This document shows, in pieces, positions 35,418-54,077 of a stretch of 64,000 bases of DNA. Each line of letters starts with the position of its first letter. Position 1 is the stretch's first letter. The stretch is taken from the NCBI GenBank assembly GCA_038883795.1, contig JAVZLK010000002.1, positions 108,491 to 172,490 of the forward strand. Reading direction: 5' to 3'. Position numbers and translations under genes: made by a program. Source of the DNA: Candidatus Bathyarchaeia archaeon (lineage in GTDB: Archaea; Thermoproteota; Bathyarchaeia; Bathyarchaeales; Bathycorpusculaceae). A model generated the notes under the pieces. That model saw only the letters and a list, made by a program, of their open reading frames with translations, did not search any database and was not told the origin of the DNA.

Positions 35418-36566
35418 TTATTCCCCTCCTTGTTTGGAGATTTCAACTGCTTTTTGTGCGGCTTCTTCCATGCTTTCTAAAACGTGGATTCCCGCTTCTT
35501 TCAGTATCCTTTTTCCCTCCTCTTCGTTTGTGCCTACAAGCCTAATAACCATGGGTTTTGTTACGCCCACCTTAGTTTTTGCTTCTAGAATTCCTCTTGC
35601 AACTTCGTCGCATCTTGTTATTCCGCCTAGAATGTTTATGAAAAGCGTCTTAACGTTTGGGTCTGAAAGCACTATTTTTAGGGCGGTGGCTATTTTTTCT
35701 GCTGGGGCGCCTCCGCCTACGTCTAAGAAGTTGGCTGGTTTTCCGCCATAATATTGGATTGTGTCCAAAGTTGCCATTACAAGGCCTGCCCCGTTGCCTA
35801 TGACGCCTATGTTTCCGTCCAGTTTGACGTAGGCTAAGTCGTTTTTTATGGCTTCTATTTCTTCTGAGGTTAGTTCACTTTCGCCTTCCAATAGCCTCTT
35901 CTTATATTCTTGGTGGCGGAATAGGGCGTTGTCATCAATTATTATGCGGGCGTCTGCTGCCACGAATTTACCATCAACCGTTTCCACAAGCGGGTTCATT
36001 TCAATTAATTCAGCATCGTAATCCATGCCAATTTTATATAGGGTTTCAAAGATTCTTGCAATTTCGGAAAGTTGACCGCCAGCATACCCCATTTTTCTTG
36101 CTATTTGTCTGGCATGAAAGGAGCGGAAGCCCTGTTGGGGGTTTATTGGGAATTTTATGACTTTTTCTGGGGATTTTTGGGCTACTTCTTCTATTTCCAT
36201 TCCGCCCACAGATGAGGCTATTGCGATGTAGCTTTGATGGAACCTGTCTGTTGTTATGCCAAAATATAATTCCCTTTTTATCTGCATCTGTTCCTCAATC
36301 CATATGCTTTTTACTGATATCCCTTTTATTTGCATTTTCAGCAGTTTTTCAGCAGCCTTCTCTACCCCTTCAATGGTTTCAGGGAAGAGAATTCCGCCAG
36401 CCTTCCCCCTTCCAGCAACCAAAACTTGCGCTTTCACTGCGAAGGGTGGTTTTATCTGGCTTGCCACTTCTCTGGCTTGGTTTGGGTTTGTGGCTAGTCC
36501 TCCCTTTGGTGTTGGTATTCCATATTTTGCGAGTATATTTTTTGCTTCATATTCGAAAAGTTTCAT
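35418..36566 (-). CDS. sucC: Succinyl-CoA synthetase beta subunit
   Basis: [43 protein letters not shown]. Confidence 0.95.
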
Positions 36567-36577
36567 TTCTTTCACTC

Positions 36578-37036
36578 TCACTTTATGGATTCTATTGTGA
36601 CATAGGATTTTGTATCTTGTACACCATCAATAGAGGCTAACTTTTTTAAGACTTCGTCGAGTTTTCCCCTATCAACTATTAATAAGGCGTCAACATCGCC
36701 TGCTATTCTGAAGGCTCTTTGGAGGGCGAGTTCTTTAACTTTCTCGTAAGCATACATTCGCTTGTGGGGTGAAACCTTGAGAAATACAAAGGCGGGGTTT
36801 CCGGACACGCCAAGCGCCTCTAACCCTTTCTCGGTTACGTCTATGAAACCTCTTCCAGTGCGTATATAATTTAAGTCTCTGAGTTTTCGAAGGTGAATGT
36901 TTAAGGCTTGCCTGCTTATTCCAAGCTGTTTCGCCAACTCATCCTGTTTTACATGGAGAGTATATGTGCTTGTGGATTTTCCTTTTTCATAAAGCATTCG
37001 CAGCAATTGAACTGAACGTCTTGTAAGTGCTTCCAA
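36578..37036 (-). CDS. Lrp/AsnC-family transcriptional regulator
   Basis: QDELAKQLGISRQALNIHLRKL HTH plus RAM-like domain (IAGDVD). Confidence 0.8.
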   Translation of the reverse strand: MEALTRRSVQLLRMLYEKGKSTSTYTLHVKQDELAKQLGISRQALNIHLRKLRDLNYIRTGRGFIDVTEKGLEALGVSGNPAFVFLKVSPHKRMYAYEKVKELALQRAFRIAGDVDALLIVDRGKLDEVLKKLASIDGVQDTKSYVTIESIK

Positions 37037-37244
37037 AGCATTTCCCTCTTTATGTTTTGTTAAGTTTAGACTTTACAATAGTACCGCTTATTTAAAAGTT
37101 TAGCAAAGAGAAAGCGTTAAACTACATTCTTTTTTGAATTTTCTTTTTATTGAATAGAAGTAAAAACCGTAATGTATTTATTTATCGATAAAAAAGGTTA
37201 TGAAGCCATAGAAAACGTGAAAACTAGGAGTGAGGCGGTACAAA

Positions 37245-37523
37245 ATGTCAGAAAGCAACTCAGTGCTGATCGGGAGAAAGCCAGTAATGAACTATGTACT
37301 GGCTTGCATAACCCTCTTTCACGGCGGAGCAAAAGAAGTGAATATTAAAGCAAGAGGGAGAGCCATAAGCCGAGCAGTTGACGTCGTTGAAGTTGTCAGA
37401 CGCCGATTCCTACCAGATGTGAAAATCAAGAAAGTTGGTGTGGGAACAGAGCAGGTGGCACCCAGAGAAGAGGGTGGCACGCCCACAAACGTTAGCACCA
37501 TTGAGATAACACTAGAACGTTAA
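37245..37523 (+). CDS. albA: Chromatin protein Alba
   Basis: [31 protein letters not shown]. Confidence 0.97.
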
Positions 37524-37594: not shown

Positions 37595-38104
37595 GTGAAA
37601 ACAGAATTATGCAGTTTCTGTTTGAAAAGTGGGATACTGTGCCAAAAGTGTTTAGCTAAAGTTGAGTCTGGCGAAATAACAGAATTGGACTTGAAAGTTG
37701 CCCGTTTGCTCTTATCCCTAGAAGAGAAGTTTCCCTCCCTTCAAAACGTTTATTTTCATAAAGCTGTGGACGCTGGCAAAACTTTAGCAGTAATTGTTGG
37801 ACCTGGCGATGTGCCCCGTCTTTTGGGTTATGGCGGCAAAATAATAAAGGCATTAGGCGAGGAAGTTGGCAAAAGTGTTCGTGTTTTGGAGCATGGAGTT
37901 GATGACAGAAAATTTTTGGAAGACTTATTCGCCCCTCTAAGCATAGTTACCATTAACACTATTTGGCTTCCAGATGGAACCACTGAGACCAGAGTAATCC
38001 TAAAGAAGAGGCGTGGTTCTCAGCCGCCTTTTGATGTAAAAGCTTTAAAGGAGATTGCTCGTAAAGTTCGCAACATGACTTTGCGAGTTGAATTTACAGA
38101 TTAG
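37595..38104 (+). CDS. NusA-like KH-domain protein with N-terminal Cys cluster
   Basis: CSFCLKSGILCQKC; LLGYGGK GxxG loop; INTIWLPDG. Confidence 0.8.
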   Translation: MKTELCSFCLKSGILCQKCLAKVESGEITELDLKVARLLLSLEEKFPSLQNVYFHKAVDAGKTLAVIVGPGDVPRLLGYGGKIIKALGEEVGKSVRVLEHGVDDRKFLEDLFAPLSIVTINTIWLPDGTTETRVILKKRRGSQPPFDVKALKEIARKVRNMTLRVEFTD

Positions 38105-38114
38105 AGCTTGACGG

Positions 38115-39443
38115 GTGCCATATATGAAGTTGGATTCCATTGGTGATTGGCGGAGAACCCATTATTCGGTTGACGTGAAGCCAGAAATGGATGGTTTGGA
38201 AGTTACGCTTTTCGGTTGGGTTCAAGAGATTAGGGATTTGGGTGGAATTCGCTTTATAATATTGCAGGATAGAGAAGGAACCATTCAAATCACTATTCCA
38301 CGAAAAAAGGTTTCAAGCGAAGTTTTGGCGAAGTCTGATGTTTTGCAGAAGAGGTATAGCATAGGCGTGAAAGGAACCGTGAAAAAGACTGAAGTAACTC
38401 CAAGGGGGGTCGAAGTTATACCGAAGGAGATTAAAATTTTTGGCACAGCTACTTCTCAACTTCCAATAGATATTACTGGAAAGACGCCTGCGGGTTTGGA
38501 AACGCGGTTAGATGCAAGAGCCTTAGACCTTTGCCAAGACAAAAACATAGCAGTTTTTAAAATTCAGCACACAGCCGTAGAAGCCATTCGAGACTTTCTA
38601 TTCGAAAGAGGCTTCATAGAAGTGCATACACCAAGGATTATTGCTTCCGCAACTGAAGGCGGCGCAGCCTTATTCCCAGTGGATTATTTTGGAAGGAAAG
38701 CCTTTCTCGCCCAAAGTCCCCAATTGTATAAAGAGCAGCTTGTCATGAGCCTTGAAAAAGTTTTCGAGGTGGGTCCATTTTTTAGGGCTGAGGAATCCCA
38801 TACAAGATTTCATGCCAGCGAGTTTGTTTCCATCGATATCGAGCAAGCTTTTGCAGATGCTGAAGATGTGATGCAGTTGCTTGAAAGGTTGATGCAGCAT
38901 GTTTGCAAAGTTGTGAATGAAAAATGCGGGAAAGAGTTGGCTTTGCTGAAGCATAAAGTCGAGGTGCCGACAGTTCCCTTTAAACGGTTTACTTACGATG
39001 AAGTTCTCAAAGAATTGGAAAGGGAAGGCGTAAATGTTCCATGGGGAGAAGACATTCCAACTCCAGCCCTAAGAGCTCTTGGAAAAATTCACCCATACTT
39101 CTATTTCATAACCGACTGGCCCACGCACTCCAAAGCCTTTTACATAAAACCTCGGGATGATAAACCAGAAATTTGCGAGGGCTTCGATTTGATGTGGCGT
39201 TGGCTTGAGCTTGTTTCTGGCGGGACAAGAATTGCAGATAAGGAGCTTTTGATGAAACGTTTGCAGGAGAAGGGGTTAAACCCAGAGGCCTTCAAGTTTC
39301 ATTTGCAAGCTTTTGATTTTGGGATGCCGCCGCATGCGGGTTGGGCTATTGGCTTAGAAAGGCTGACGATGATGTTGACGGGTAAAAGAAATATCAGAGA
39401 AGTTACTCTTTATCCTAGAGACAAGTTTAGAGTAACTCCATAA
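38115..39443 (+). CDS. aspS: Aspartyl-tRNA synthetase (likely non-discriminating)
   Basis: GWVQEIRDLGG OB fold, AQSPQLYK, FRAEES, PPHAGWAIGLERL; Pro in the L1 loop (TPRGVE). Confidence 0.95.
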   Translation: MPYMKLDSIGDWRRTHYSVDVKPEMDGLEVTLFGWVQEIRDLGGIRFIILQDREGTIQITIPRKKVSSEVLAKSDVLQKRYSIGVKGTVKKTEVTPRGVEVIPKEIKIFGTATSQLPIDITGKTPAGLETRLDARALDLCQDKNIAVFKIQHTAVEAIRDFLFERGFIEVHTPRIIASATEGGAALFPVDYFGRKAFLAQSPQLYKEQLVMSLEKVFEVGPFFRAEESHTRFHASEFVSIDIEQAFADAEDVMQLLERLMQHVCKVVNEKCGKELALLKHKVEVPTVPFKRFTYDEVLKELEREGVNVPWGEDIPTPALRALGKIHPYFYFITDWPTHSKAFYIKPRDDKPEICEGFDLMWRWLELVSGGTRIADKELLMKRLQEKGLNPEAFKFHLQAFDFGMPPHAGWAIGLERLTMMLTGKRNIREVTLYPRDKFRVTP

Positions 39444-40132: not shown

Positions 40133-41620
40133 ATGGGTTGTGGCGTATTTGGAGCAATAAACTTCGAAGAACAGCCCATATTCCCATACATTTACTGGGG
40201 CATGAGAGCCCAAAACCACAGAGGTCACCAATCCCATGGCTTCCTAACCTTTGATAATGGAAAATTTCATGTGCACAGAAGCTTAGACCTAATACCAAAA
40301 ATAAAGACAAGCGCCATCCAAGAATGGTTTGGACGTTTGCCTGGGCGCATGGGTATAGCAAATGTTAGGTATACCACTTCTGGAAAATGTGATGAAAAAT
40401 CCCTTATAAAGGGCACTCAACCAGTTACCGCTTCAAAAAATGGGTTTTCGGTGGCTGTTTCTTTTAATGGTAATGTTGTTAACGTATTCCAGGTTAAAGA
40501 GGAAATAAGCAAATATTTTCCAAAATTTTCTTACGAATGCGATGCCGACCTTGTTTCTCATAAACTCCTAATCGAATTATTGAAAAAGAAAGATATTGCG
40601 TCAGCAGTAAAAACGTGCATGGAAGAAATTGAAGGAGCCTTTTCCGTGGCGTGCATAACAAAGAATGGCGAGTTCTTCGCCTTCAAAGACCCAAATGGCA
40701 TCAGACCATTATGTGCCGGGCACAGCGAAGACAGAACAACTTACGCTTTCTCCTCAGAAACTGTAGGCTTAGACATAAACGGCTTCAAAAAAGCCTTTGA
40801 AATTGAGCCAGGCGAACTTGTAACAGTTTCAAAAGATGGGTTTCAAAGGGAGAAATTGGTGAATGGTAGATGCAAGGCTTTCTGTGCTTTCGAATTTGCA
40901 TATTTCGCCAGACCAGACTCATGCTTTGATAACAAATATGTTTATGAAGTTAGAGAAGAGTTTGGAAGAAACCTTGTTAGAGAAAATCCAGAGATAGCCA
41001 AAAACGCAGACATAGTCATATCCATCCCAGAAACAGGCGACGACGCAGCCTTCGGAGTTCATGAAGAGTCTGGCTTAAAATGGGAAAGGGCTTCACGAAG
41101 GCACCGTTTTGTAACAGAAAGAGCCTTTATACTACTGAATAGGGAGCGTTATGCGACCATAGACCGCAAAATTAACATTATAGCCTCTAAAGTTAATGGA
41201 AAACGAGTCATAGTAACCGAAGACAGCATAGTACGCGGCGACACAACAAAAATAGTAATAGAAAAACTTCGCAGAATGGGCGCGAAGAAGGTTTACATGT
41301 TTGTAACTTTCCCACGCATAATTGGACCATGCTTCTATGGAATAGACATGGCAACATACGGTCAACTAATAGGCTCAAAGCATACGGCGGAAGAAATAGC
41401 AAAAATAATTGGCGCGGATGCCGTCTGCTACCAATCAATAGAAGGTTTCATAAAAGCCACTGGTTTCCGCAGCGACCAACTTTGTTTGGCATGCGTAACT
41501 GGCAAATATCCTACGCCGCTAGCGCAAAAAATTGCGGATGAGATTAAAAAGAAGTTCCTTGAAGGCTACGAGGAACAAGGGAGACTTTACGAAATATCTG
41601 AGGCTTTCCAAAAAGCCTAA
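40133..41620 (+). CDS. purF: Amidophosphoribosyltransferase (Fe-S type)
   Basis: MGCGVFG Ntn Cys, NHRG, VRYTT, DSIVRG PRPP loop, four Cys (CAFE, PCFYG, CLAC). Confidence 0.93.
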   Translation: MGCGVFGAINFEEQPIFPYIYWGMRAQNHRGHQSHGFLTFDNGKFHVHRSLDLIPKIKTSAIQEWFGRLPGRMGIANVRYTTSGKCDEKSLIKGTQPVTASKNGFSVAVSFNGNVVNVFQVKEEISKYFPKFSYECDADLVSHKLLIELLKKKDIASAVKTCMEEIEGAFSVACITKNGEFFAFKDPNGIRPLCAGHSEDRTTYAFSSETVGLDINGFKKAFEIEPGELVTVSKDGFQREKLVNGRCKAFCAFEFAYFARPDSCFDNKYVYEVREEFGRNLVRENPEIAKNADIVISIPETGDDAAFGVHEESGLKWERASRRHRFVTERAFILLNRERYATIDRKINIIASKVNGKRVIVTEDSIVRGDTTKIVIEKLRRMGAKKVYMFVTFPRIIGPCFYGIDMATYGQLIGSKHTAEEIAKIIGADAVCYQSIEGFIKATGFRSDQLCLACVTGKYPTPLAQKIADEIKKKFLEGYEEQGRLYEISEAFQKA

Positions 41621-41675
41621 AGCCAAAAATAAAATAGGCTTCAACCTCATTTCCTAAAAATAAAGGGCGCATGAA

Positions 41676-43085
41676 ATGGAGAAAGTTGGCATCCTCGTTG
41701 TTTCTTACGGAGCAAGAGAATCCGCCATAATAGACGCTTTCGCACGAAGCACAAATTATGATGTGAAAGTTTTTGTTGTTGATAAACAACGCAACCCCTT
41801 CAACGTCAAAAAGGCAACTAAGCATGTTGTTGTTCCAGATTTGAACGTGGAGGAAATATGCAAATTCGCAGAAAACAATAAGGACGAAATTGACTTTGGC
41901 ATAGTTGGACCAGAAAAACCCATAATCGACGGCGTCCGCGACCTTGTAGAAAAGCGAACGGGCATACCCATCATTTGTCCAAAAAAGCAATACGCTATAG
42001 AAGCAAGCAAAGTGCAACAGCGTCTACTATTCCAAAAAATTGTGCCAGAAGTGAATCCACGCTTCAAAATTTTCAACCCAAAAGATTACAAAACCCAAGA
42101 AGAAGCGAAAAAAGCTGTTTACAAATGGCTGGACGAACTTGAAAATAGGGCTGTCGTTAAACCAGACCAGCCAGCGGCCGGAAAAGGCGTAGGCGTATGG
42201 GGAGACCACTTCACGACACGTGAGCAGTTGTTCGAGCATTTTATGGCAAATTTCCAGCATGGAGCAGTAATAATCGAAGAGAAAATTGAGGGCGAAGAAT
42301 CAAGTTTTCAAGCTTTCTGCGACGGCAAACACTTGGTGCCTTTACCAGAAACCAGGGATTATAAGCGAGCCTTCGACGATGACAAGGGTCCAAACACTGG
42401 CGGTATGGGTTCCTATAAGGATGTTAGCGATGTTTTGCCTTTCATGACCGCTGCTGATAGGGCTAAAGAAGTTGAAATTGTTAAGCGAATCTTTGAAAAG
42501 TGGAACATTAAAGATGGTGATAGCCTAAGAGGCATTCCATTTTACGTGGCTTTTATGCACACGGGCAAGGAACCGAAAATCCTTGAAAACAACAGCAGAC
42601 CAGGCGACCCAGAAATAATCAACATTTTACCAATTTTGAAAGATGATTTTGTCGACATATGCTTCAAAATTTTGGAAGGAAACCTAACAAAAATCGAATT
42701 AGAAAAGGCTGCAACAGTTGTCACCTATAAGGTTCCGCCAAACTACGGCGGATACATAGACGCTTTTCCAAAACTTGTAGACAAAAACGAAATTGGCGCA
42801 CCAGTCGACCTAACAAGGGCTTACGAACTAACCAAAAAATATGGCGAAAAAATCCGCATCTATCCAGCCTCCATGGAACTTCGCAACAGCGAAACTTACG
42901 CCCTTAAATCAAGAGCTGTGGGTGTTGTGGGCATAGGCGACGACATAGAAACTGCTAGAAAAATTTCTCTTGAGGGCATAAAAGCCATTAAAGGCGGAGC
43001 ACTGTGGCATAGAAAAGACATAGCCTCTAAAAAGCATATAGAAAAAAGCATTAGACATATGGAGAGGCTGAGGCTTAAAAAGTGA
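41676..43085 (+). CDS. purD: Phosphoribosylamine-glycine ligase
   Basis: VGPEKP, AAGKGV, DYKRAFDDDKGPNTGGMGS, NSRPGDPE. Confidence 0.92.
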   Translation: MEKVGILVVSYGARESAIIDAFARSTNYDVKVFVVDKQRNPFNVKKATKHVVVPDLNVEEICKFAENNKDEIDFGIVGPEKPIIDGVRDLVEKRTGIPIICPKKQYAIEASKVQQRLLFQKIVPEVNPRFKIFNPKDYKTQEEAKKAVYKWLDELENRAVVKPDQPAAGKGVGVWGDHFTTREQLFEHFMANFQHGAVIIEEKIEGEESSFQAFCDGKHLVPLPETRDYKRAFDDDKGPNTGGMGSYKDVSDVLPFMTAADRAKEVEIVKRIFEKWNIKDGDSLRGIPFYVAFMHTGKEPKILENNSRPGDPEIINILPILKDDFVDICFKILEGNLTKIELEKAATVVTYKVPPNYGGYIDAFPKLVDKNEIGAPVDLTRAYELTKKYGEKIRIYPASMELRNSETYALKSRAVGVVGIGDDIETARKISLEGIKAIKGGALWHRKDIASKKHIEKSIRHMERLRLKK

Positions 43086-44164
43086 AGAGAGTTTTCATAT
43101 CGGACTGTGAAGGGCCAATCTCAAAAAATGATAATGCCTTCGAAATAACATCCCATTACGTTCCTAACGGAGACAAACTCTTTGCGGTTATAAGCAAATA
43201 TGATGATGTTTTGGCAGAAGTCCTAAAAAGACCAAATTATAAGGCTGGAGATACTTTAAAGCTTATTTTGCCCTTCTTAAAGGCTTATGATGTCACAGAC
43301 GCTAAAATGCGGGAATTTTCTGCTAAGAGCCTACTTTTAATTGCTAACGTGAAGGATACTCTATCGTATGTGAGAAATATAACCAATGCCTTTATTGTCA
43401 GCACAAGCTACCAGCATTACATAGAAGCCTTATGCCAAGCCCTAAATTTTCCATACGAAAACACTTATTGTACAAAGCTTCGCCTCGACAAATACTCCAT
43501 AACGGAGAAGGAAAGAAGCGAACTGAAAGAATTGGCAAAGGAAATTGTTAAGATGCCTTTAATCGAGATTCCTCCAAAGGCAAAAGCTCCAAGCGACTTC
43601 TCCAAAAGAGACCAAGAACTAATTGGTCGGCTTGACGAAATTTTCTGGAGCATCATCGCTAAAATGGAGATTGGCAAAATTTTCTCCGAAGTTAATCCAG
43701 TTGGGGGCAGCGAGAAAGCCGAAGCAGTGAAAAACGCGGCTAAAAAGGTTGGTGCGGAACTGGCGGATGTGATGTATGTTGGCGACAGCATAACGGATGT
43801 TGAAGTCTTTCGGCTTGTGAAAGAAAATGGTGGCTTAGCCGTTTCTTTCAATGGTAACGAGTATGCCATAAGAAATGCCGAAGTTGCTATTTTGTCGGAA
43901 AGCAGCATAGCCACAGCAGTAATTGCAGAATTGTTTAGCAATTTTGGAAAAGAACAAACACTAAAAATTGTCAAAAATTGGAGTAGTGAAACACTAAAGA
44001 CAGCGCTTACAAATCAAACATTGCTTAACAAACTTTTTAGTTTGTATCCTAAAAAATTGCCTAAAGTTAAAATAATAACAAAAGAGAATATGGATGCTCT
44101 GGCAAAAGAAAGTAGCGAATTCCGGAAAAAGGTTAGAGGCGAAGCCATAGGAAGACTGGGATAA
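43082..44164 (+). CDS. HAD-superfamily hydrolase (COG4030/EhaR-like)
   Basis: FISDCEGP (motif I variant), [20 protein letters not shown]; GTGA overlap with the purD stop. Confidence 0.82.
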
Positions 44165-45075
44165 TGGTAAAAAAAGCTGAAGTGGAAGATACTTATGCAG
44201 AGGCTTTCGAAGGAATCTTCTCTAGAATAATTGTTACAGCTGATGACGAAGAAACATTGCGAAAAGCTGCTGAGGATGCCACGGCAACGCCATCGATAGT
44301 TATTGGCAGAGTTGAAGGCGGAATAGAAAAATGGCTAAGCGAAAAGGAAACTCCGGATAAGCGTGAAGGCGCTTTGCTCCAGTTTTGGGGTGGAATAGAC
44401 CCGAAAAAGCCCTTTTCAGAATCCCTAAAAAAATTTGAAGTTGAGCTTTCTTATAGAATTCGCCAGGACATTCTTGTTAAGCCTTTTACAGCAGTTTTTG
44501 ACGTAACACCAAAGGCTGAAGGAAAAATTGACATGATGGAGCGTGTTGGACACTGCGGAGACGGTTATGAGTGGGTTGAAAAACGCTTTGGGCGTGAGGT
44601 TATTGTTGTTCCCATAATGGTTCCAGATTTCATTATCGAGCGCTATATAGGCTATGCCCGTGGAGTTATGGGCGCAAACTTTTGGGTTATGTGCAAAACA
44701 AAACAAGCCCTAAAAAGGGCTGGAGAAAAAGCCTTAGAGGCGATTCACAAAATTGAGGGTGTAATAACGCCTTTTGACGTGTGCAGTGCTGGTTCCAAGC
44801 CCGAAACAAGTTTTCCATGGATTGGACCAACAACAAACCATCCCTACTGCCCATCCCTAAAAAAGAAGTTGGGCAAAGAATCAAAGGTTCCAGAAGGCGT
44901 CAACTATATTCCAGAAATCGTGATTAATGGCGTTTCGCTTGATGTCGTGAAAAGGGCTATGCGGGCTGGCATGGAAGCCGTATTAGAAGTGGATGGCGTG
45001 GTTAAGGTTTCAGCTGGAAATTATAGCGGAAAACTTGGCGATTATAAGATTTACTTGCGTGAGCTGTTTTCATGA
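44164..45075 (+). CDS. Formylmethanofuran:H4MPT formyltransferase (Ftr) family paralog (EhaS-like)
   Basis: [45 protein letters not shown]; divergent [11 protein letters not shown] core; TAATG coupling. Confidence 0.85.
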
Positions 45076-45986
45076 ACCGCTTTGACGTGGTAGGATTCGG
45101 CGCCTTAAACGTTGACAAACTGTTTAAGGTAAACAAAATAGCTGGGGCTGAAGAAGAAGGCTTCATCATAGACTGCCAAGAATGGTGCGGAGGCTCAGCA
45201 GCAAACACCACCGTAGGTTTGGCAAGGCTCGGCTGCAAAGTAGGCTTTATAGGAAAAGTAGCCAACGATAGGGAAGGAAAAATGCTAGTAGAAGATTTTC
45301 AAAAGGAGGGCGTCGACACAAACGGCATAATCTATGCCAAAAATGGCAGAAGCGGAACAGTTATGGGTTTCGTAGATCAAAAGGGCGAACGGGCATTATA
45401 CGTGGACCCAGGCGTGAACGACACAATAGAGTTTAACGAAATAAACAAGCATTACGCTTTTAACACGCAATTTTTGCATTTAACCTCTTTTGTTGGAGAA
45501 AAATCCTTCCAAACCCAAAAGAAGCTTGTGGAAATGTTGCCAGAAAATGTTAAGGTAAGCCTTGACCCAGGCGAATTATACGCCAGAAAAGGATTAGCGG
45601 CATTAGAGCCCATAATAAAGCGTGCTTTTGTTTTAATGCCAAACCAAAGAGAACTCGAACTCCTAACCAAAACCAAAGATTACAAGAAAGGCGCTGAGAT
45701 TTTGCTCGAAAAGGGCGTTAAAATAATTGCGGTAAAACTTGGCAATAAGGGCTGTTACGTTACCAATGGAAAGGAAAACCACCAAATAAACCGTTTTAAC
45801 GTAAAAGTTGTGGACACAACAGGCGCTGGCGATGCCTTTTGTGCTGGTTTTCTTTATGGTATTATTAATGGTAAAAGTTTGTATGAGTGTGGAAAACTTG
45901 GCAATTTTGTAGCGTCAAGATGCATAATGAAAATGGGCGCCAGAACAGGGCTTCCGCGCATTGAAGAATTAGAACTTCTTCGTTAA
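45072..45986 (+). CDS. PfkB/ribokinase-family kinase (nucleoside kinase-like, EhaT-like)
   Basis: [16 protein letters not shown]; ATGA coupling to the Ftr paralog. Confidence 0.9.
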
Positions 45987-46787
45987 ATATTCAATTAAGC
46001 TTTCAAAGATTAGTTTTCCATCGCCGTATTGTGGCATTTGCTTTTGTCTTGTCCAGTCTGGTTGTTGCCACCAATAGAATGCTCTTTCTGGATGCGGCAT
46101 CAAACCAAATACTGTTCCTTCGGGGTTGCATATTCCAGCTATGTCATGGAAAGAGCCGTTTGGGTTTGTTGGAAAACGACCCTCAGCATATTCGCCATTT
46201 TTATCGCAATAACGGAAGACTAGCTGGTCATTTTCGTAAAGCTTTTTCAGAAACTCCTTTTCCTTTTCTTTTGCAAACATGAATCTGCCCTCTGAATGGG
46301 CAACAGGAACTCGCAAAACTTTTCCATGCGGAATCTTCCAAGTAAATGCACATTTTCCCTTATTTTCGTGCCTAATGTAAATCCATCGGCAGTTATATCC
46401 AGGCGGAAAATTAGTTGCCAAAACTGCCTCTGGATATGGGCTTATTTCATCAAATCCTGGAAGAAAACCAGCCTCCACAAGCACTTGAAAGCCATTACAA
46501 ATGCCAAGGATTAAACGGTTTTCGTCTACAAAGGCTTTAAGCTCCTTGCCCAATTTAGCCATTATCCACTTCGCCCATATGGCGCCAGCCCGCACATAAT
46601 CCCCATAAGAGAAGCCTCCCGGAAAAACCAGAACGTGATACTCCAAAAGGTTTCCATGTTTAACCAGTTCATTTGCATGTACGATTTCAGCGTTGACGTC
46701 TAACTCTTCAAAAGCCCGTTTTGTTTCTGCGTCGCAGTTTGTTCCGCCAACTCTTAAAACGCAGACTTTAATCTCTTCTCGCTTCAT
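45969..46787 (-). CDS. purQ: FGAM synthase glutaminase subunit
   Basis: GTNCD, PGGFSYGD, GICNGFQ, MPHPER. Confidence 0.96.
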   Translation of the reverse strand: MKREEIKVCVLRVGGTNCDAETKRAFEELDVNAEIVHANELVKHGNLLEYHVLVFPGGFSYGDYVRAGAIWAKWIMAKLGKELKAFVDENRLILGICNGFQVLVEAGFLPGFDEISPYPEAVLATNFPPGYNCRWIYIRHENKGKCAFTWKIPHGKVLRVPVAHSEGRFMFAKEKEKEFLKKLYENDQLVFRYCDKNGEYAEGRFPTNPNGSFHDIAGICNPEGTVFGLMPHPERAFYWWQQPDWTRQKQMPQYGDGKLIFESLIEYLTKKF

Positions 46788-49171
46788 GTCCTAAACCCGC
46801 TGCTTAGGGTTCTTTTCCAACTTGTCAACAAATCTTTCAGCGAGGCATCGACAACAACTTCATTGTTTAATCCGTAAACGCATAACCTTGGAACTTTTGT
46901 GACCTTTCCTACTTCAGCATATGCCACACTTTTAAACAATGCTTCAAACTCTTCCTTTGCCTTTTGCGAAACTTCCATCAAAAAGCGACTGTTCGACTCA
47001 GAAAACAGAATGAAATCATTACGATTCAAATTTTCTCTCGGAACCTTCTGCAAATGTAATTCCATTCCATATCCACCAGCAAAAGCCATCTCCGCCGCCG
47101 CCACGCCTAAACCTCCCTCTGATAAATCATGGCAAGCCTTAACCAACCCTAAATCAATAGCTTTGGTAATTGCCCTAAAAGTTTTCTTGGCTTGTTTTGC
47201 CCGAACTTTCGGCACAGCATTTCCAACAAAACCCTTAAGCCTATAATATTCAGAACCGCCCAACTCGTTATAGGTTTGTCCAACAATGTAGATTAAGTCG
47301 CCGATATCCTTGACATCCATGGACACAACCAAACGGACATCTGGAACAATGCCCAAAGCAGTAATTAAAAGCGTTGGCGTAACCGTTCCAAGCGGAGACT
47401 CATTGTAGAGACTGTCCTTTCCAGAAATGAATGGTGTCTTAAAAGCGGTTGCAAAATCATAACAAGCCTCACAAGCCCTAACGAGACTGCCAAGAATTTC
47501 GGGCTTTTCCGGACTGCCCCACGTGAAATTGTCAAGTAAGGCTATTCTTCTTCCGCCAACAGACACATTATTCCTTATAGCTTCATCTATGGCTGAGGCA
47601 GTCATCCAATAAACATCAATTTTTCCATAATTCGGATTCATCCCACAAGAAATGACTAAACCTTTCCACGAATCCGCTAACGGTTTGAGAACGGCAGCAT
47701 CGTTGGGTCCAGAAAACTCGCCATGCAAGGGCTTAAGCAGAGTGTTTCCTTTTACCTCATGGTCATATGTGCGTATTACGCTTTCTTTGCTTGCAATGTT
47801 AGGCGATGACAAAAGGTGCATAAGCGTTTCAGTCAAGTTTTCTGGTTCTTGAAAGGATGGCTCTTCAAAAATTTTCGGCTTATATTCTGCGGTTCTTACA
47901 ACTTTAGGTGGTTCGAATAGAAATGGAATGTCTATTTCGGCAACTTTTTCGCCTTCATAATAAAGCCTTAAAACTTCATCCGACGTGTATTTTCCAATAG
48001 CATTAGCTTCCACATCCTCGTCCCTAAAAACTTCTAAAACTTTCTCCAAATTTTCTGGAGGAACAGCCAAAAGCATTCTCTCTTGGGATTCGGAAACGTA
48101 AATTTCCCAAGGAGCCAAACCAGGATATTTTAATGGAACCTTATCCAACTCAATAAAAGCGCCGCAACCAAATCGTTTTGCTGTTTCGCCAACCGCCGAT
48201 GATAAGCCTCCTCCGCCCAAATCTGTTATTGCAGAAGCAAGCTCGAAATCTCGAATCCTAATTATCGCCCTTTTCAGCTTTTCCTCCTCGATGGGATTTG
48301 CAATTTGAACTGCCGGTCTTGAAACTTCCTCTGACTTTTCTGTTAATACGGCTGATGCAAAGGTTACGCCGTGAATGCCATCTCGCCCGGTTCTTCCGCC
48401 AGCCAAAACTATAACATCGTCTGGTTTAGCGTTTCTCCTAAACTTTTTCAATGGAAGCAATCCAACGCATCCGCAGTAAACAACCACATTCCCAACATAA
48501 CTTTCATCAAAATATGTGGCGCCGTTAACCGTTGGAATGCCCATGTTATTGCCATAACTTCCAATACCAGCAACAACTCCCATGTAAACATACTTTGGAT
48601 GCTTAACGCCAGAAGGAAGCCTTTCATAATCAAAATTCAACGGACCAAAACCCAGAACATCCATACACGCTATGGGGTCAGCCCAAACTCCCAAAACATC
48701 CCGAATTACACCACCAACTCCGGTGGCTGCACCTCCAAAAGGTTCCACGGCTGATGGATGATTGTGAGTTTCAACCTTAACCGCCACTCCGTAACCCTTG
48801 TCAAAACGGATTATACCCGCGTTATCCTCAAAAATGGAAAAACACCATTTTGGCTTAATTTCATCGGTTGCCTTTGCAATGTAGGTTCTAAAAAGGCTTT
48901 CAATCTCCTTCCCATCGAATTTTATCTTACCCTTGAAAGTCTTGTGGAAACAGTGCTCAGACCATGTCTGCCCAATAGTTTGAAGTTCCACATCTGTTGG
49001 GTTTCTTCCTTTTCGCCTAAAATATTCTTGAATGCTCTTCATTTCTTGCAAATTTAAGCCTATGCCAAGTTCGCTGCTTATTTCCAAAAGCTGTTTTTCA
49101 GAAGCCTCTAAGACGTTGATTTCGAAAAGTGGAAAGGAAGTTTTTCTGCGAATGTAAAGGTTCACATTCAT
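46784..49171 (-). CDS. purL: FGAM synthase subunit PurL
   Basis: WSEHC.HK, ETHNHPSAVEPFGGAATGVGG, SESQERM, HDLSEGG. Confidence 0.97.
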   Translation of the reverse strand: MNVNLYIRRKTSFPLFEINVLEASEKQLLEISSELGIGLNLQEMKSIQEYFRRKGRNPTDVELQTIGQTWSEHCFHKTFKGKIKFDGKEIESLFRTYIAKATDEIKPKWCFSIFEDNAGIIRFDKGYGVAVKVETHNHPSAVEPFGGAATGVGGVIRDVLGVWADPIACMDVLGFGPLNFDYERLPSGVKHPKYVYMGVVAGIGSYGNNMGIPTVNGATYFDESYVGNVVVYCGCVGLLPLKKFRRNAKPDDVIVLAGGRTGRDGIHGVTFASAVLTEKSEEVSRPAVQIANPIEEEKLKRAIIRIRDFELASAITDLGGGGLSSAVGETAKRFGCGAFIELDKVPLKYPGLAPWEIYVSESQERMLLAVPPENLEKVLEVFRDEDVEANAIGKYTSDEVLRLYYEGEKVAEIDIPFLFEPPKVVRTAEYKPKIFEEPSFQEPENLTETLMHLLSSPNIASKESVIRTYDHEVKGNTLLKPLHGEFSGPNDAAVLKPLADSWKGLVISCGMNPNYGKIDVYWMTASAIDEAIRNNVSVGGRRIALLDNFTWGSPEKPEILGSLVRACEACYDFATAFKTPFISGKDSLYNESPLGTVTPTLLITALGIVPDVRLVVSMDVKDIGDLIYIVGQTYNELGGSEYYRLKGFVGNAVPKVRAKQAKKTFRAITKAIDLGLVKACHDLSEGGLGVAAAEMAFAGGYGMELHLQKVPRENLNRNDFILFSESNSRFLMEVSQKAKEEFEALFKSVAYAEVGKVTKVPRLCVYGLNNEVVVDASLKDLLTSWKRTLSSGFRT

Positions 49172-49419
49172 CTTTCTTCCTCAACCACAATCACATAATC
49201 ATCCTTAGTTGGATTAGCCAAAAGCCTCCTACACATCTCATCAGCCTTCGCATCAGCCTCCCTTCTCGATTCAGCTTCAAGAATTACGGTGTAAACCTTG
49301 CTGACATTTACAGTTTCAACTTTATAACCAAGTTCTTTCAGCAAATATGCTGTGGTCTCCCCTTCTGGGTCGCTATGTCCAGGCTTCAATTTTACTTCAA
49401 TTTTTAAGCGGTATTTCAT
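49168..49419 (-). CDS. purS: FGAM synthase subunit PurS
   Basis: LKPGHSDPEG...LLANP. Confidence 0.93.
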   Translation of the reverse strand: MKYRLKIEVKLKPGHSDPEGETTAYLLKELGYKVETVNVSKVYTVILEAESRREADAKADEMCRRLLANPTKDDYVIVVEEER

Positions 49420-49479
49420 AGGCTAAGTTTGAGTTTTAAGAGATTTAAACGCTTTTATCAGCAAAAAGGCAAAATCATC

Positions 49480-50556
49480 TCAAAAAATTTTCTTACCCTT
49501 ATAAAGAATTCTAATTCCTTTAGAATCCGTTACATGCCCTATAGGCTCAGCTTCTGCCCCATTCCTCTCCAAGACATCTACCGCCTTGTCCACATCCTTT
49601 TCGTCAACTATAACCGCAAAACCCCACCCCATATTAAACGTCTTAAACATCTCCTCATCCGTAATTTTTCCACCTAATTCTGAAGCAGTTTTCTGAATTA
49701 GCTCAAAAATAGGCTGCGGCTTAAAATTGTTAAATTCAAAACCTATCCCCTTAGAAAACCTTGTCAGTCTATCAAATTTTAAATACGCATCGCCAGTTAT
49801 GTGAACCGCAGCCTTAACCCTAACCTCTTCTGCAACCCTAAGCAAAGGCTTAACATAAATCTTAGTAGGCTCAAGAACTTCGTAAACAATTTCCCTACTC
49901 AATCCGTCTGGAACGTCGTAAGGTTCATATTTTCCACCCCAACGCTTAAAAAGAACCTTCCTCGCCAAAGAAACGCCATTACTATGAATTCCAGAACTTC
50001 TCAAGCCGACAATAACATCGCCAGCCTTTATGTCTCTTCCATAAATTATTTTTTCGCTAGAAACCAGCCCAATGGCTGCCACAACCAAATCAAAGCCTTT
50101 ACCCTTTACCAAACCTTTAACTATTTCAGCGACATCACCAATTTCCCCACTCGGCACAACACATCCAGCTTCAACAGCCCCTTTGGCTATTCCTTTCAAT
50201 AATTCCTCAATTAAGCTTGGATCAGAGACTTGAGCATGAATGTTATCTGCAACCGCTAAGGGTTTAGCCCCGGACCTAATAACATCATTAACAGCAACAG
50301 CAACACCATCAACTCCGATAGTATCAAACTTTTCAGCCAACTGCGCAACAAGAACCTTAGTGCCCACACCTTCGATAACCAAATCCAAAAAACAATCTTT
50401 TCCTATAGGAAAAATGTTCCCATAAGGAAGCTCAACAACCCCACCATAACAACTAAACCCATAAGTTTCCCTTAAAATCCTCAAAGCCCTCTTAGATTCT
50501 GATCTAAGTTTTCTGTTAACCCCAGCCCTAGCATAAGTAAATTCCCGAGGCAACAC
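49480..50556 (-). CDS. purM: AIR synthetase
   Basis: TYARAGV, EGVGTK, SSGIHSNG, HITG, EMFKTFNMG. Confidence 0.95.
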   Translation of the reverse strand: MLPREFTYARAGVNRKLRSESKRALRILRETYGFSCYGGVVELPYGNIFPIGKDCFLDLVIEGVGTKVLVAQLAEKFDTIGVDGVAVAVNDVIRSGAKPLAVADNIHAQVSDPSLIEELLKGIAKGAVEAGCVVPSGEIGDVAEIVKGLVKGKGFDLVVAAIGLVSSEKIIYGRDIKAGDVIVGLRSSGIHSNGVSLARKVLFKRWGGKYEPYDVPDGLSREIVYEVLEPTKIYVKPLLRVAEEVRVKAAVHITGDAYLKFDRLTRFSKGIGFEFNNFKPQPIFELIQKTASELGGKITDEEMFKTFNMGWGFAVIVDEKDVDKAVDVLERNGAEAEPIGHVTDSKGIRILYKGKKIF

Positions 50557-50670: not shown

Positions 50671-51081
50671 TTACCTGCGCCTTATGCCCCGCAAAGAAAG
50701 AGGTAGTGTAGCACGTTGTTCTACTTTTGCTAAATTATCTTCTTCCTGAACCGCCTTAACTAACTTATTACCCACATAAGCACTTAACAACATATCCCGC
50801 AAAATATTAAATTGTCTCAAAAAAGCAAATCCCCGCTCACTAACCCTAAACAAAATTTTACCCTCCCTAACTTCCGCATCCAAGAAACCAATCTTAGTAA
50901 GGGACGGCAAATACTTCTTAAGCTGCGCATAATTAATGCCGGTGCGCTTCATAAGAGAATACAAAGCAGCACCATTATTTCCTGCAGCCTCTAATATTAA
51001 AGCAATAATCTCCATTTGACTTCTATACTTCTTTTGCAAAGGCAAGCAAATTAAATCAAATTCCTTATTATAGTTCGCCAT
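50671..51081 (-). CDS. Winged-helix transcriptional regulator
   Basis: YRSQMEIIALILE...LMKRTGINYAQLKKYL...VSERG..FL. Confidence 0.75.
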   Translation of the reverse strand: MANYNKEFDLICLPLQKKYRSQMEIIALILEAAGNNGAALYSLMKRTGINYAQLKKYLPSLTKIGFLDAEVREGKILFRVSERGFAFLRQFNILRDMLLSAYVGNKLVKAVQEEDNLAKVEQRATLPLSLRGIRRR

Positions 51082-51899: not shown

Positions 51900-53801
51900 T
51901 TGGAAAAAAGGGTTTTAATTCTATTAATAATTTTATGTTTGATGTTCGCGTCAATCCTCAAAAATTATAAAATTTCCCTTAGGGCAGCACAAACACGAAC
52001 ATGGATCGTGGATGACGACGGACAAGCAGATTTTAAAACCATTCAAGAGGCTATAAACAACGCGAGTTCAGGAGACACAATATTTGTTCGTAATGGAACT
52101 TATTATGAAAACGTTGTTATCAATAAAAGCATTACACTGGTAGGAGAACACAGAGATTTCACAGTTATTAATGGCAACAAAACTGGTCATGTTGTTACCA
52201 TAGAGGCTGATAACGTAAGCATCCAAGGCTTCACTATAATGAAGAGTTATGATGGTCAATACGGTGGGATATTCATACGATCCCTTTCTATCGGTAACGT
52301 TATAACTAATAATAAAATCATAGAAAATTCTTATGGAATTTATCTTTACCTTTCAAGCAATAACAACATCTCTAACAATCTGATCTCCAATAACCTTTAC
52401 GGAATAGGTCTTACTTCTTGCAGCAACAACTTTATTTTCAGTAATACTATAATCTCAAATATCAACGACGGAATTAATTTATTCACATCCTTTAACAACT
52501 TTATTTCATATAATGTTATTCTGCATAACTCGCTCAATGGAATAAGCCTCTATAGTTCTGGAGACAATTTAATTCATGGAAACACTATTTCTACTAATCT
52601 ATTCTACGGAATTTTCTTTTATTCATCCATCAGCAATCTAATTTCAGTCAATACCATCACAAACAACCCTGCCGGAGGAATTGTCACAGTTTTTTCAAGC
52701 AATGACAATATTTTTTATCATAACAACTTCGATAATATAGTTCAAGTGTATAGTAAAGATTCGACCAATTTTTGGAGTTGCAATAATGAAGGAAATTATT
52801 GGAGTAACTATAATGGCACAGATTTTTACAGCGGTCCTAACCAAGACTATCCTGGTAGCGACGGAATAGGTGACATCCCTTATATTATAGATGAAGCCAA
52901 TGTTGATGGCAGTCCTCTTATGGGGATGTTTCATTCGTTTGACATAACTTATAAACAAAAAGTATACCAAGTTGCTATTATTTCTAATTCAACGATTTCT
53001 GATTTTCAGTTTCAGGTCGGAGTGGAAACTGGAAACAGAATAATACTCTTTAAGCCCAGCAACAATGAGAATACTGTTGGTTTTTGTCGAGTTATGATTC
53101 CTACGGAGTTTATGACTTATCCATACATTATTCTTTTTGGTAATGAGGAGATTAGTCCGTCTTTTCTCGCTATATCAAATGAAACTCATGTTTATCTATA
53201 TTTCACATATTTACATGATGATCAAATGGTCACAATGATTTCTTCTGAATGGTATAATGAATTGCTTAATATTTATTATGATTTGAATTTGACATATTAT
53301 AACCTTCTAAACCTTTATAATGACCTTTTGTATGATTACGCACTTCTTTTGGATAATTATACCCAGCTTCAGAAAAGTTTTGAGCTGTTAAATGCTTCTT
53401 TTCTGTATTTTTATGATTTGAATGCGACATTCTATAATTTTCTTGATGATTATGTGAAGTTACAAGAAAATTTCGATCTTTTGAATAGAACATATTATAA
53501 TCTTGCTGAGTTTTATTGGCAGTTGCAGATAAATTTTGGTAATTTGAGCCTCACATACCAAAGTCTTTTAAATGCATTTGTCCTTCTATCTGGTAATTAT
53601 ACTCAGCTTCAAGAAGATTTTCAGGAATTGAATGCTTCTTATCAAGATTATATGCATAGTTATTCTGAAAGCGTTAGTAATGTTAAGAACCTAACTTATA
53701 TTATTGTGGCTATGACGGCGGTTTTAATAATAGTTACTACCTACTTGTCAAAACAGGTTCACAGCGGCGGTGGAATTAAGATTAAAAAGTTTGGCGAGTA
53801 G
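51900..53801 (+). CDS. Cell-surface glycoprotein: NosD/CASH beta-helix, coiled-coil stalk and C-terminal TM anchor
   Basis: Signal peptide; DFKTIQEAINNA...GTYYENV; GI.L..S.NN.I..N repeats; GNYWS; DGIGD; NxS/T-rich heptads. Confidence 0.85.
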   Translation: MEKRVLILLIILCLMFASILKNYKISLRAAQTRTWIVDDDGQADFKTIQEAINNASSGDTIFVRNGTYYENVVINKSITLVGEHRDFTVINGNKTGHVVTIEADNVSIQGFTIMKSYDGQYGGIFIRSLSIGNVITNNKIIENSYGIYLYLSSNNNISNNLISNNLYGIGLTSCSNNFIFSNTIISNINDGINLFTSFNNFISYNVILHNSLNGISLYSSGDNLIHGNTISTNLFYGIFFYSSISNLISVNTITNNPAGGIVTVFSSNDNIFYHNNFDNIVQVYSKDSTNFWSCNNEGNYWSNYNGTDFYSGPNQDYPGSDGIGDIPYIIDEANVDGSPLMGMFHSFDITYKQKVYQVAIISNSTISDFQFQVGVETGNRIILFKPSNNENTVGFCRVMIPTEFMTYPYIILFGNEEISPSFLAISNETHVYLYFTYLHDDQMVTMISSEWYNELLNIYYDLNLTYYNLLNLYNDLLYDYALLLDNYTQLQKSFELLNASFLYFYDLNATFYNFLDDYVKLQENFDLLNRTYYNLAEFYWQLQINFGNLSLTYQSLLNAFVLLSGNYTQLQEDFQELNASYQDYMHSYSESVSNVKNLTYIIVAMTAVLIIVTTYLSKQVHSGGGIKIKKFGE

Positions 53802-53847
53802 TAGATAAAAATTTAAAGCTGGTTAATTTTTTGATTTTATGTTTGTT

Positions 53848-53921
53848 GCGGTCGTAGTCTAGTTTGGTTAGGACATCAGCCTCCCACGCTGACGACCCGG
53901 GTTCAAATCCCGGCGACCGCA
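53848..53921 (+). tRNA. tRNA-Gly(CCC), integration target; CCA not encoded
   Basis: GCGGTCG/CGACCGC acceptor; TCAGC-CTCCCAC-GCTGA anticodon arm; CCGGG-TTCAAAT-CCCGG T arm. Confidence 0.96.
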
Positions 53922-54077
53922 TCCGTTTAGCTCTATTTTTGAATAGGATTCTTTTAATGTCTTAATTATTTGTTTTAGACAATTTTCGCAAACTTTTGAC
54001 AAATTTAACCCTAATTCTTGTGCTTCTTTGACTGTTTCTGCATCTAAAAGTAATGTTGTTCTCTTTTTATTATGCAT
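53868..54077 (-). CDS. Integrase N-terminal fragment int(N), RHH/CcdA-like
   Basis: MHNKKRTTLLLDAETVKEAQELGLNLSKVCENCLKQ then reads through att as CGRRDLNPGRQRGR. Confidence 0.8.
   Translation of the reverse strand: MHNKKRTTLLLDAETVKEAQELGLNLSKVCENCLKQIIKTLKESYSKIELNGCGRRDLNPGRQRGRLMS
53880..53921 (+). repeat. att site within tRNA-Gly
   Basis: CCTCCCACGCTGACGACCCGGGTTCAAATCCCGGCGACCGCA. Confidence 0.95.

Follow-up and report, generated by a model that had tools for sequence, protein, structure and literature searches.

A HAD protein, an Ftr paralog and a PfkB kinase in a bathyarchaeial purine cluster as candidates for the missing glycinamide ribonucleotide formylation step

How is glycinamide ribonucleotide (GAR) formylated in archaea that use tetrahydromethanopterin (H4MPT) and have neither PurN nor PurT? 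The question is raised by a 64,000-nucleotide stretch of DNA from a Candidatus Bathyarchaeia archaeon (the window: positions 108491-172490 of contig C2, JAVZLK010000002.1, in assembly GCA_038883795.1, here G000), in which the genes for steps 1, 2, 4 and 5 of purine synthesis are clustered and three further genes follow purD. These encode a protein of the haloacid dehalogenase (HAD) fold, a diverged paralog of formylmethanofuran:H4MPT formyltransferase (Ftr), designated Ftr2, and a kinase of the PfkB family. A preliminary description of the DNA had put forward the Ftr paralog as a GAR transformylase; the checks run here came out as that idea predicted, and sequence comparison leads us to propose that the trio carries out the conversion of GAR to formylglycinamide ribonucleotide (FGAR), Ftr2 being the formyltransferase of this step by either of two mechanisms discussed below. 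We put the probability of this reading at about 0.7. The gap itself, which the preliminary description had also named, is acknowledged in passages of Brown 2011 and again of Chadwick 2022, according to which the enzyme that formylates GAR in Archaeoglobi, Methanobacteriales, Methanopyrus and ANME-1 has yet to be identified. The locus and its relatives name a specific candidate enzyme, together with two obligatory partners, for this step.

Two purine operons converge within the window, purF-purD-HAD-Ftr2-PfkB on the plus strand facing purQ-purL-purS-purM on the minus strand. All nine open reading frames (ORFs) were found at the coordinates given here, and each family assignment, hence the clustering first described, was backed by both Pfam and NCBIfam.

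40133..41620, plus strand: purF, amidophosphoribosyltransferase, step 1 (TIGR01134, 318.9 bits, below the equivalog cut-off of 350; GATase_7)
41676..43085, plus strand: purD, GAR synthetase, step 2, diverged type (GARS_N/A/C; TIGR00877, 276.8 bits, below the cut-off of 288)
43082..44164, plus strand: EhaR-family HAD-fold protein, predicted phosphatase/phosphotransferase (HAD Pfam matches, motifs, structure 1Y8A, AlphaFold2 model, JGI name EhaR)
44164..45075, plus strand: Ftr2, diverged Ftr paralog, candidate GAR(-riboside) formyltransferase (FTR and FTR_C; NF002554, 348.9 bits; TIGR03119, 232 bits, below the cut-off of 292.6)
45072..45986, plus strand: PfkB-family ribokinase-like kinase (PF00294, 182 bits; TIGR02152 ribokinase, 176.7 bits, below the cut-off of 299.65)
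45969..46787, minus strand: purQ, glutaminase subunit of step 4 (NF002252, 317 bits, above cut-off)
46784..49171, minus strand: purL, step 4 (TIGR01736, 694.7 bits, above cut-off)
49168..49419, minus strand: purS, step 4 (TIGR00302, 75.9 bits, above cut-off)
49480..50556, minus strand: purM, step 5 (TIGR00878, 259.8 bits, above cut-off)

The genes from purD to PfkB are translationally coupled by overlapping stop and start codons. The three overlaps read in the sequence as originally claimed: GTGA at 43082 between purD and the HAD gene, TAATG at 44162-44166 between the HAD gene and Ftr2, and ATGA at 45072 between Ftr2 and PfkB. A scan of species-representative genomes with an 18-sequence HAD alignment gave 565 relatives, from which the best 80 loci (HAD identity 60-88%) were kept; all 80 belong to Bathyarchaeia, as do the closest protein relatives of the window locus. 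Among these 80, purD lies upstream of the HAD gene in 79, the remaining contig being too short, and Ftr2 stands directly after it in 75, with one further contig ending early; PfkB and purF are each found in 71. Four loci have no Ftr2 after the HAD gene although 10 kb follow, and in the two of these that were examined an Ftr2-PfkB pair was found elsewhere in the same genome. The purD-HAD-Ftr2-PfkB arrangement is real and conserved, not a product of chance.

The source assembly (2.18 Mb in 81 contigs, 87% complete, 3.4% contamination) was searched for other enzymes of the step. Neither PurN (TIGR00639) nor any Formyl_trans_N domain (PF00551) was found in it and the best match to PurT reached only 20 bits; the absence of purN and purT claimed from the window thus extends to the whole 87%-complete assembly. 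FolD, PurP, PurH (PF01808) and PurO (PF07826) were likewise not found there. The presence of Mch and FwdA indicates that the organism uses the methanofuran/H4MPT one-carbon (C1) route. The preliminary description had called for a canonical ftr to be sought in this genome. Such a gene (Ftr1) accompanies Ftr2 in 14 of 15 genomes of the same family (f1), and none turned up in G000 itself: a profile search found the window gene as its only Ftr-family member, and tblastn with the canonical Ftr of relatives returned this gene alone, at 38-40% identity. Given the two copies in those 14 relatives, the lone gene most likely reflects assembly incompleteness, which is also the best explanation for finding neither Ftr1 nor PurP in G000. 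PurP is present in the families that have Ftr2 (for instance in 14 of the 15 f1 genomes), which leaves step 3 as the only one without an enzyme; on the same ground, the notion that the trio also covers the formylation of aminoimidazole carboxamide ribonucleotide was rejected. The last purine step may be a separate gap in G000, the one genome surveyed for it, as no inosine monophosphate cyclohydrolase of either known kind (PurO or PurH) was found there.

Does the trio behave across genomes as a substitute for the known transformylases? Searches of 151 Bathyarchaeia genomes, combined by hand, found the HAD protein in 62, PF00551 in 54, PurT (model matched at E<=1e-30) in 13, PurD in 122, PurP in 81 and an Ftr-family gene in 125. 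The HAD protein is present in all 57 genomes that have Ftr2. The 122 genomes with PurD divide into 54 with Ftr2, of which G149 alone carries a PurN-like gene in addition (at another site of the genome, paired with FolD); 56 with PF00551 or a PurT gene and no HAD; five (G002, G010, G034, G028 and G140) with HAD, a diverged PurN-like gene adjoining purD and no Ftr2; and seven with neither Ftr2, PF00551/PurT nor HAD. Families with none of the three systems (f10, f14 with 0/7, f16, f19 with 0/5, and f26) are also without PurD. A match to the PurT model in G001 was rejected, being PurK (466 bits). The anti-correlation with purN and purT and the recurring pur linkage foreseen in the preliminary description therefore held in this sample. 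Because the genomes are related to one another the counts overstate independence; at least three separate switches can be told apart, within family f11, within family f21 and at a deep split.

Family f11 is informative, as the trio occurs there in two genera, true PurT in four and PurN in one (the PurT matches of f11 and f17 are of the true PurT type). Since all these f11 genomes have canonical Ftr, the distribution of the trio goes with the GAR step, not with H4MPT use. Replacement can also be seen in place. The slot after purD is occupied by Ftr2, by a PurN-like gene or by PurT, and HAD and PfkB go with the first two, not with PurT. In G034 and G028 a single cluster reads purF-purD-[PurN-like, 281-330 aa]-HAD-PfkB-FolD, where FolD would make the 10-formyl-tetrahydrofolate (10-formyl-THF) used by a PurN-type enzyme; in G002 and G010 the same type of gene set is split over two sites; in G140, purD, the PurN-like gene and a partial HAD are visible before the contig ends within HAD. 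The order in G016 is purF-purF-purD-purT. No protein of the trio matches Formyl_trans_N or the PurT-type ATP-grasp in Pfam or NCBIfam, and the relation to PurN and PurT is one of functional analogy, not of family membership. PurN catalyses the reaction proposed here for the trio, with an unrelated fold and a different C1 carrier, 10-formyl-THF, whereas PurT, an ATP-grasp enzyme, performs the step on free formate at the cost of one ATP.

Is Ftr2 distinct from the Ftr of C1 metabolism? It has the two-lobe FTR plus FTR_C architecture of canonical Ftr (1FTR, 1M5H, 1M5S), with both lobes at full length (152.4 and 192.1 bits), and scores 176-186 bits to these three solved enzymes. It passes NF002554 (348.9 bits against a cut-off of 297) and fails the canonical-Ftr equivalog test, TIGR03119. 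Scores obtained with the window protein as query are bimodal: Ftr2 orthologs lie at 289-681 bits (51-100% identity, 57 genomes), and the canonical Ftr1 of Bathyarchaeia at 165-211 bits (37-44% identity). In a maximum-likelihood tree, 33 Ftr2 rows (the window protein, 28 random picks of the 77 found, and four divergent sequences) and 32 Ftr1 rows were split by one branch with SH-aLRT 100; as the groups had been set by score beforehand, the tree confirms the split rather than discovering it. The preliminary description had held that its proposal would fail if the protein grouped with canonical Ftr and was the only copy in the genome: it is the only copy found, and it falls outside the canonical clade. 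Unlike canonical Ftr, Ftr2 sits in a pur operon and not with C1 genes. The two classes differ by 25 class-specific residue switches and a 9-residue insertion in Ftr2, and have 61 conserved positions in common, including the Glu of the E-I-V-I-N-G motif. This residue (E251 in Ftr2) is kept in at least 90% of 32 Ftr1 and of 78 Ftr2 sequences and lines up with the corresponding Glu (Y-E-I-V-I-N-G) of Ftr from M. barkeri and A. fulgidus; we take it to be the counterpart of Glu245, the catalytic residue of the M. kandleri enzyme. No Ftr2 fused into a longer protein was found when such forms were sought.

The 61 shared positions would also suit a different assignment, in which Ftr2 serves the Wood-Ljungdahl pathway as a second formylmethanofuran:H4MPT isoenzyme, ribose-5-phosphate or phosphoribosyl pyrophosphate comes from HAD and PfkB, and GAR is formylated by some other, unrecognised protein. 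That Ftr2 is the only Ftr found in G000 and in G139, although Fwd and Mch are present, agrees with it, as does the fact that the best family match of the PfkB protein is ribokinase. We nevertheless consider this assignment improbable. It would leave the class-specific switches and the insertion to be accounted for, the trio is absent where canonical Ftr goes with PurN or PurT (0/27 in family f18, and most of f11), and its slot is elsewhere taken by a PurN-like gene or PurT.

What, then, would the two partners do? The HAD protein carries the motifs D8-C-E10-G-P, S107-T-S, K212 and G234-D-S-I-T-D239, and motifs I-IV (D8; S107-T108-S109; K212; D235...D239) are invariant or nearly so in the 18-sequence alignment. 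The HAD fold was confirmed by an AlphaFold2 model with a mean predicted local distance difference test (pLDDT) score of 95.7. The nearest structure is AF1437 of Archaeoglobus fulgidus (1Y8A, a structural-genomics entry labelled 'hypothetical protein'), which belongs to this HAD family as well (profile score 244 bits, template modelling scores of 0.80/0.92 to the model); after it come the phosphoserine phosphatases (SerB), the phosphotransferase ThrH, MtnX and 5'-nucleotidase III (cN-III). The family numbers 669 representatives at 50% clustering, and in three of its protein clusters (P0187, P0325, P0326) the HAD is fused to a PurN-like domain. The PfkB protein (motifs G-A-L-N13-V-D15 and D248-T-T-G-A-G-D) keeps the furanose-binding N and D of ribokinase as well as the catalytic D-T-T-G-A-G-D; it fails the ribokinase (RbsK) equivalog test, is a member of no named subfamily, and finds its nearest PDB entries in PH1459 and ribokinases at about 100 bits. 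A prediction of a HAD-Ftr2 complex scored 0.00 in a run without controls and weighs neither for nor against such a complex.

A clue to the substrate came from the PurN-like proteins. Nine PurN-type sequences were aligned: two canonical PurN, three PurN-likes without adjacent HAD and four HAD-linked ones. The N-terminal G-x-G-[ST]-N loop, which holds the 5'-phosphate of GAR in E. coli PurN, is kept in all five proteins without HAD. In all four HAD-linked PurN-likes it is replaced by [ST]-G-R-D-[AR], with the catalytic N..H and D kept. The Asp within the changed loop fits an acceptor that would carry no phosphate. The loss of the loop, together with the retention of the HAD and PfkB motifs, favours an order of phosphatase, formyltransferase and kinase acting on the riboside, and gives the riboside idea of the preliminary description one new piece of support at the sequence level. 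The evidence for this order is thin.

We postulate that the trio constitutes the missing step 3 in archaea that use H4MPT and have no PurN or PurT. PurF and PurD make GAR, from which the EhaR-type HAD protein would strip the 5'-phosphate; Ftr2 would then move a formyl group onto the glycinamide amine, and the ribokinase-like PfkB would rephosphorylate the formylated riboside to FGAR, for use by PurLQS and PurM. The formyl donor would most likely be N5-formyl-H4MPT, because the glycinamide amine stands where the primary amine of methanofuran does in the reverse Ftr reaction; formyl-methanofuran is the alternative. Bracketed by the phosphatase and the kinase, a formyl transfer that lies near equilibrium would become irreversible; the price, one ATP, equals that of PurT. 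Gene content, synteny, paralogy, phyletic complementarity and gene fusions, all directly observed, make a comparative case for a GAR-to-FGAR module that is strong for computational evidence. The catalytic steps, the donor and the riboside intermediate are what we infer from it, and the complete riboside sequence, while the best single reading, is one to which we give somewhat less than an even chance.

Several observations weigh on the other side. The second Asp expected in motif I of the HAD protein, at position D+2, is a Glu (D-x-E-G-P). Removing a phosphate only to restore it is a wasteful detour, for which de novo purine synthesis offers no precedent. HAD and PfkB are retained in the operons with a PurN-like gene and FolD, where the donor would be the high-energy 10-formyl-THF, so that the thermodynamic argument does not explain the pair there. 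Ftr2 being the sole Ftr found in G000 despite Fwd and Mch, a Wood-Ljungdahl role is possible in this genome. The anti-correlation is drawn from related genomes of a single class, with few independent events. A passage of Brown 2011 refers to an opinion by which formyl-H4MPT cannot serve as donor, a statement that concerns the N10 isomer. Finally, two positions of a conserved segment that are G and C in Ftr1 have become basic in Ftr2, as R100 and K106, and these could just as well bind a phosphate.

This last feature suits a simpler chemistry, in which Ftr2 formylates the GAR nucleotide itself, from formyl-H4MPT or formyl-methanofuran, with R100 and K106 holding the 5'-phosphate. HAD and PfkB would then be accessories, which might for example salvage or repair dephosphorylated intermediates, provide ribose, or act as partners without a catalytic role. 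Everything that gene position and phyletic pattern show fits this scheme equally well. Its difficulty lies in the company that the accessories keep. HAD and PfkB are found only with non-canonical transferases: all 62 genomes with HAD have Ftr2 or an adjacent PurN-like gene, and HAD occurs in none of the 56 PurD-positive genomes that have PF00551 or PurT but neither Ftr2 nor a purD-adjacent PurN-like gene. The fusion of HAD to PurN-like domains and the specific loss of the G-x-G-[ST]-N loop in the HAD-linked proteins also count against direct formylation of the nucleotide, which we regard as the main rival, somewhat less likely than the riboside sequence.

The lost loop could also be explained, by an acceptor that carries no phosphate, if Ftr2 or the loop-less PurN-like protein formylated free glycine and a diverged PurD joined the resulting N-formylglycine to phosphoribosylamine, giving FGAR directly. 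PurD does fall into two score classes, 220-280 bits where it travels with the HAD operon (also within f11) and 300-505 bits in PurN/PurT genomes. The exception is G031, in which a canonical-type PurD of 397 bits lies directly beside HAD-Ftr2-PfkB; a diverged PurD is therefore not required. This route would moreover leave HAD and PfkB unexplained, and we think it very improbable.

The riboside sequence has a possible counterpart in methanogens. The Methanothermobacter eha operon ends in EhaR/EhaS/EhaT, which belong to the families of the trio and are arranged as it is (HAD, Ftr paralog, ribokinase-like), attached there to a hydrogenase operon and here to purF-purD. This parallel had been drawn in the preliminary description, and the databases bear it out: relatives of the HAD protein are named 'energy-converting hydrogenase A subunit R' by JGI, an ESM Atlas cluster of Methanobacteriota named EhaR scores 0.98, and a Methanobrevibacter member of the family keeps both D-C-E-G-P and G-D-S-I-T-D. 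Ftr2 and EhaS would by this token be orthologs; as the searches reached no Euryarchaeota genomes, the link to EhaS, a further point of caution, rests on names and papers and not on an EhaS tree. A passage of Kaster 2011 treats EhaR/S/T as hydrogenase subunits of unknown role. Brown 2011 reports that two Archaeoglobi, four Methanobacteriales (printed 'Methanomicrobiales') and M. kandleri have neither purN nor purT, describes M. thermautotrophicus as a purine prototroph, and calls the labelling data inconsistent. According to passages of Chadwick 2022, uncharacterised Ftr2 paralogs occur in ANME-1, ANME-2a/b, Archaeoglobales, M. kandleri and Methanothermobacter, and an enzyme yet to be identified must replace PurN and PurT in ANME-1, Archaeoglobales and Methanobacteriales; A. 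fulgidus, the source of 1Y8A, is on these accounts without PurN and PurT and has Ftr2. The passages concerned of the two papers leave the paralogs and the missing enzyme unconnected. A literature search, with subscription journals outside it, found no paper tying Ftr2, EhaS or EhaR to GAR formylation.

If the proposal is right, it would provide a function for the uncharacterised Ftr2 paralogs, for EhaR/S/T and for the orphan structure 1Y8A. Formyl groups bound to H4MPT or methanofuran would feed biosynthesis directly, and genome-scale metabolic models of methanogens and Bathyarchaeia would need correcting. An H4MPT-bound donor could bring acetate- or CO2-derived carbon into C8, which would possibly reconcile the labelling data that the passage of Brown 2011 finds inconsistent. 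With a detour at the riboside level, a core nucleotide pathway would follow a logic of a new kind. Its widest form is possible but on balance doubtful: a dephosphorylation shunt for step 3 in many H4MPT-using archaea, including the EhaR/S/T of methanogens and possibly bacteria (Thermodesulfobacteria, Aerophobetes), with the riboside formyltransferase drawn on at least two occasions from unrelated folds (Ftr-like, and PurN-like without its phosphate loop) and possibly a third time from ATP-grasp. In methanogens, the position of these genes in eha would couple the diversion of formyl groups into purines to the anaplerotic provision of reduced ferredoxin by Eha.

The HAD family includes further variants. 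EhaR-type members occur in bacteria, namely Aerophobetes, Thermodesulfobacteria (including Thermodesulfatator indicus Thein_1564) and Clostridia (clusters P0152, P0328, P0383, P0395, P0421). A subfamily (P0195, P0219, P0223, P0236, P0237, P0240, P0245, P0261 and others, one cluster being from Methanomethylophilaceae) is without the nucleophile Asp of motif I and much of G-D-S-I-T-D, and its members are probably not phosphatases. Two clusters of 900-970 aa (P0192, P0204) have HAD fused to an ATP-grasp with a faint PurT-like motif. They are encoded on metagenome contigs, at L130:10001-12913 and L129:10001-12895, outside pur operons; in L130 the genes upstream match those of the window (a minus-strand sucC-like gene followed by aspS), and the fusion occupies the position that purF-purD-HAD-Ftr2-PfkB has there. 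The N-terminal ATP-grasp part of the fusion type resembles PurT faintly, with 33 bits to NF006766 across some 35 residues and an E value of 0.19 against PurT structures, shows no similarity to PurD, and gave an unusable AlphaFold model (pLDDT 42.8, from a 2-sequence alignment). In view of the weak PurT likeness and of the location of these genes, ATP-grasp was not counted as a third fusion partner of HAD and is kept as a lead only. In G081 (a single contig, 86% complete, in which PurD was not found), a 604-aa ORF directly upstream of Ftr2-PfkB (L125:6393-8207, G081:C1) has an FAD/NAD-binding and 4Fe-4S-like region at its N terminus, fused to the last two thirds of HAD.

The purine operons of the window are flanked by the following genes.

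35418-36581, minus strand: sucC-like ATP-grasp/CoA-ligase
36578-37036, minus strand: helix-turn-helix (HTH) regulator
37230-37523: Alba
37595-38104: KH-domain protein
38115-39443: non-discriminating aspS
50671-51081, minus strand: winged-helix gene, beyond purM
51900-53801: NosD-like beta-helix protein, beyond purM
53847-53924: tRNA-Gly(CCC), beyond purM

The GC content of the window drops to 0.33 at 52-56 kb.

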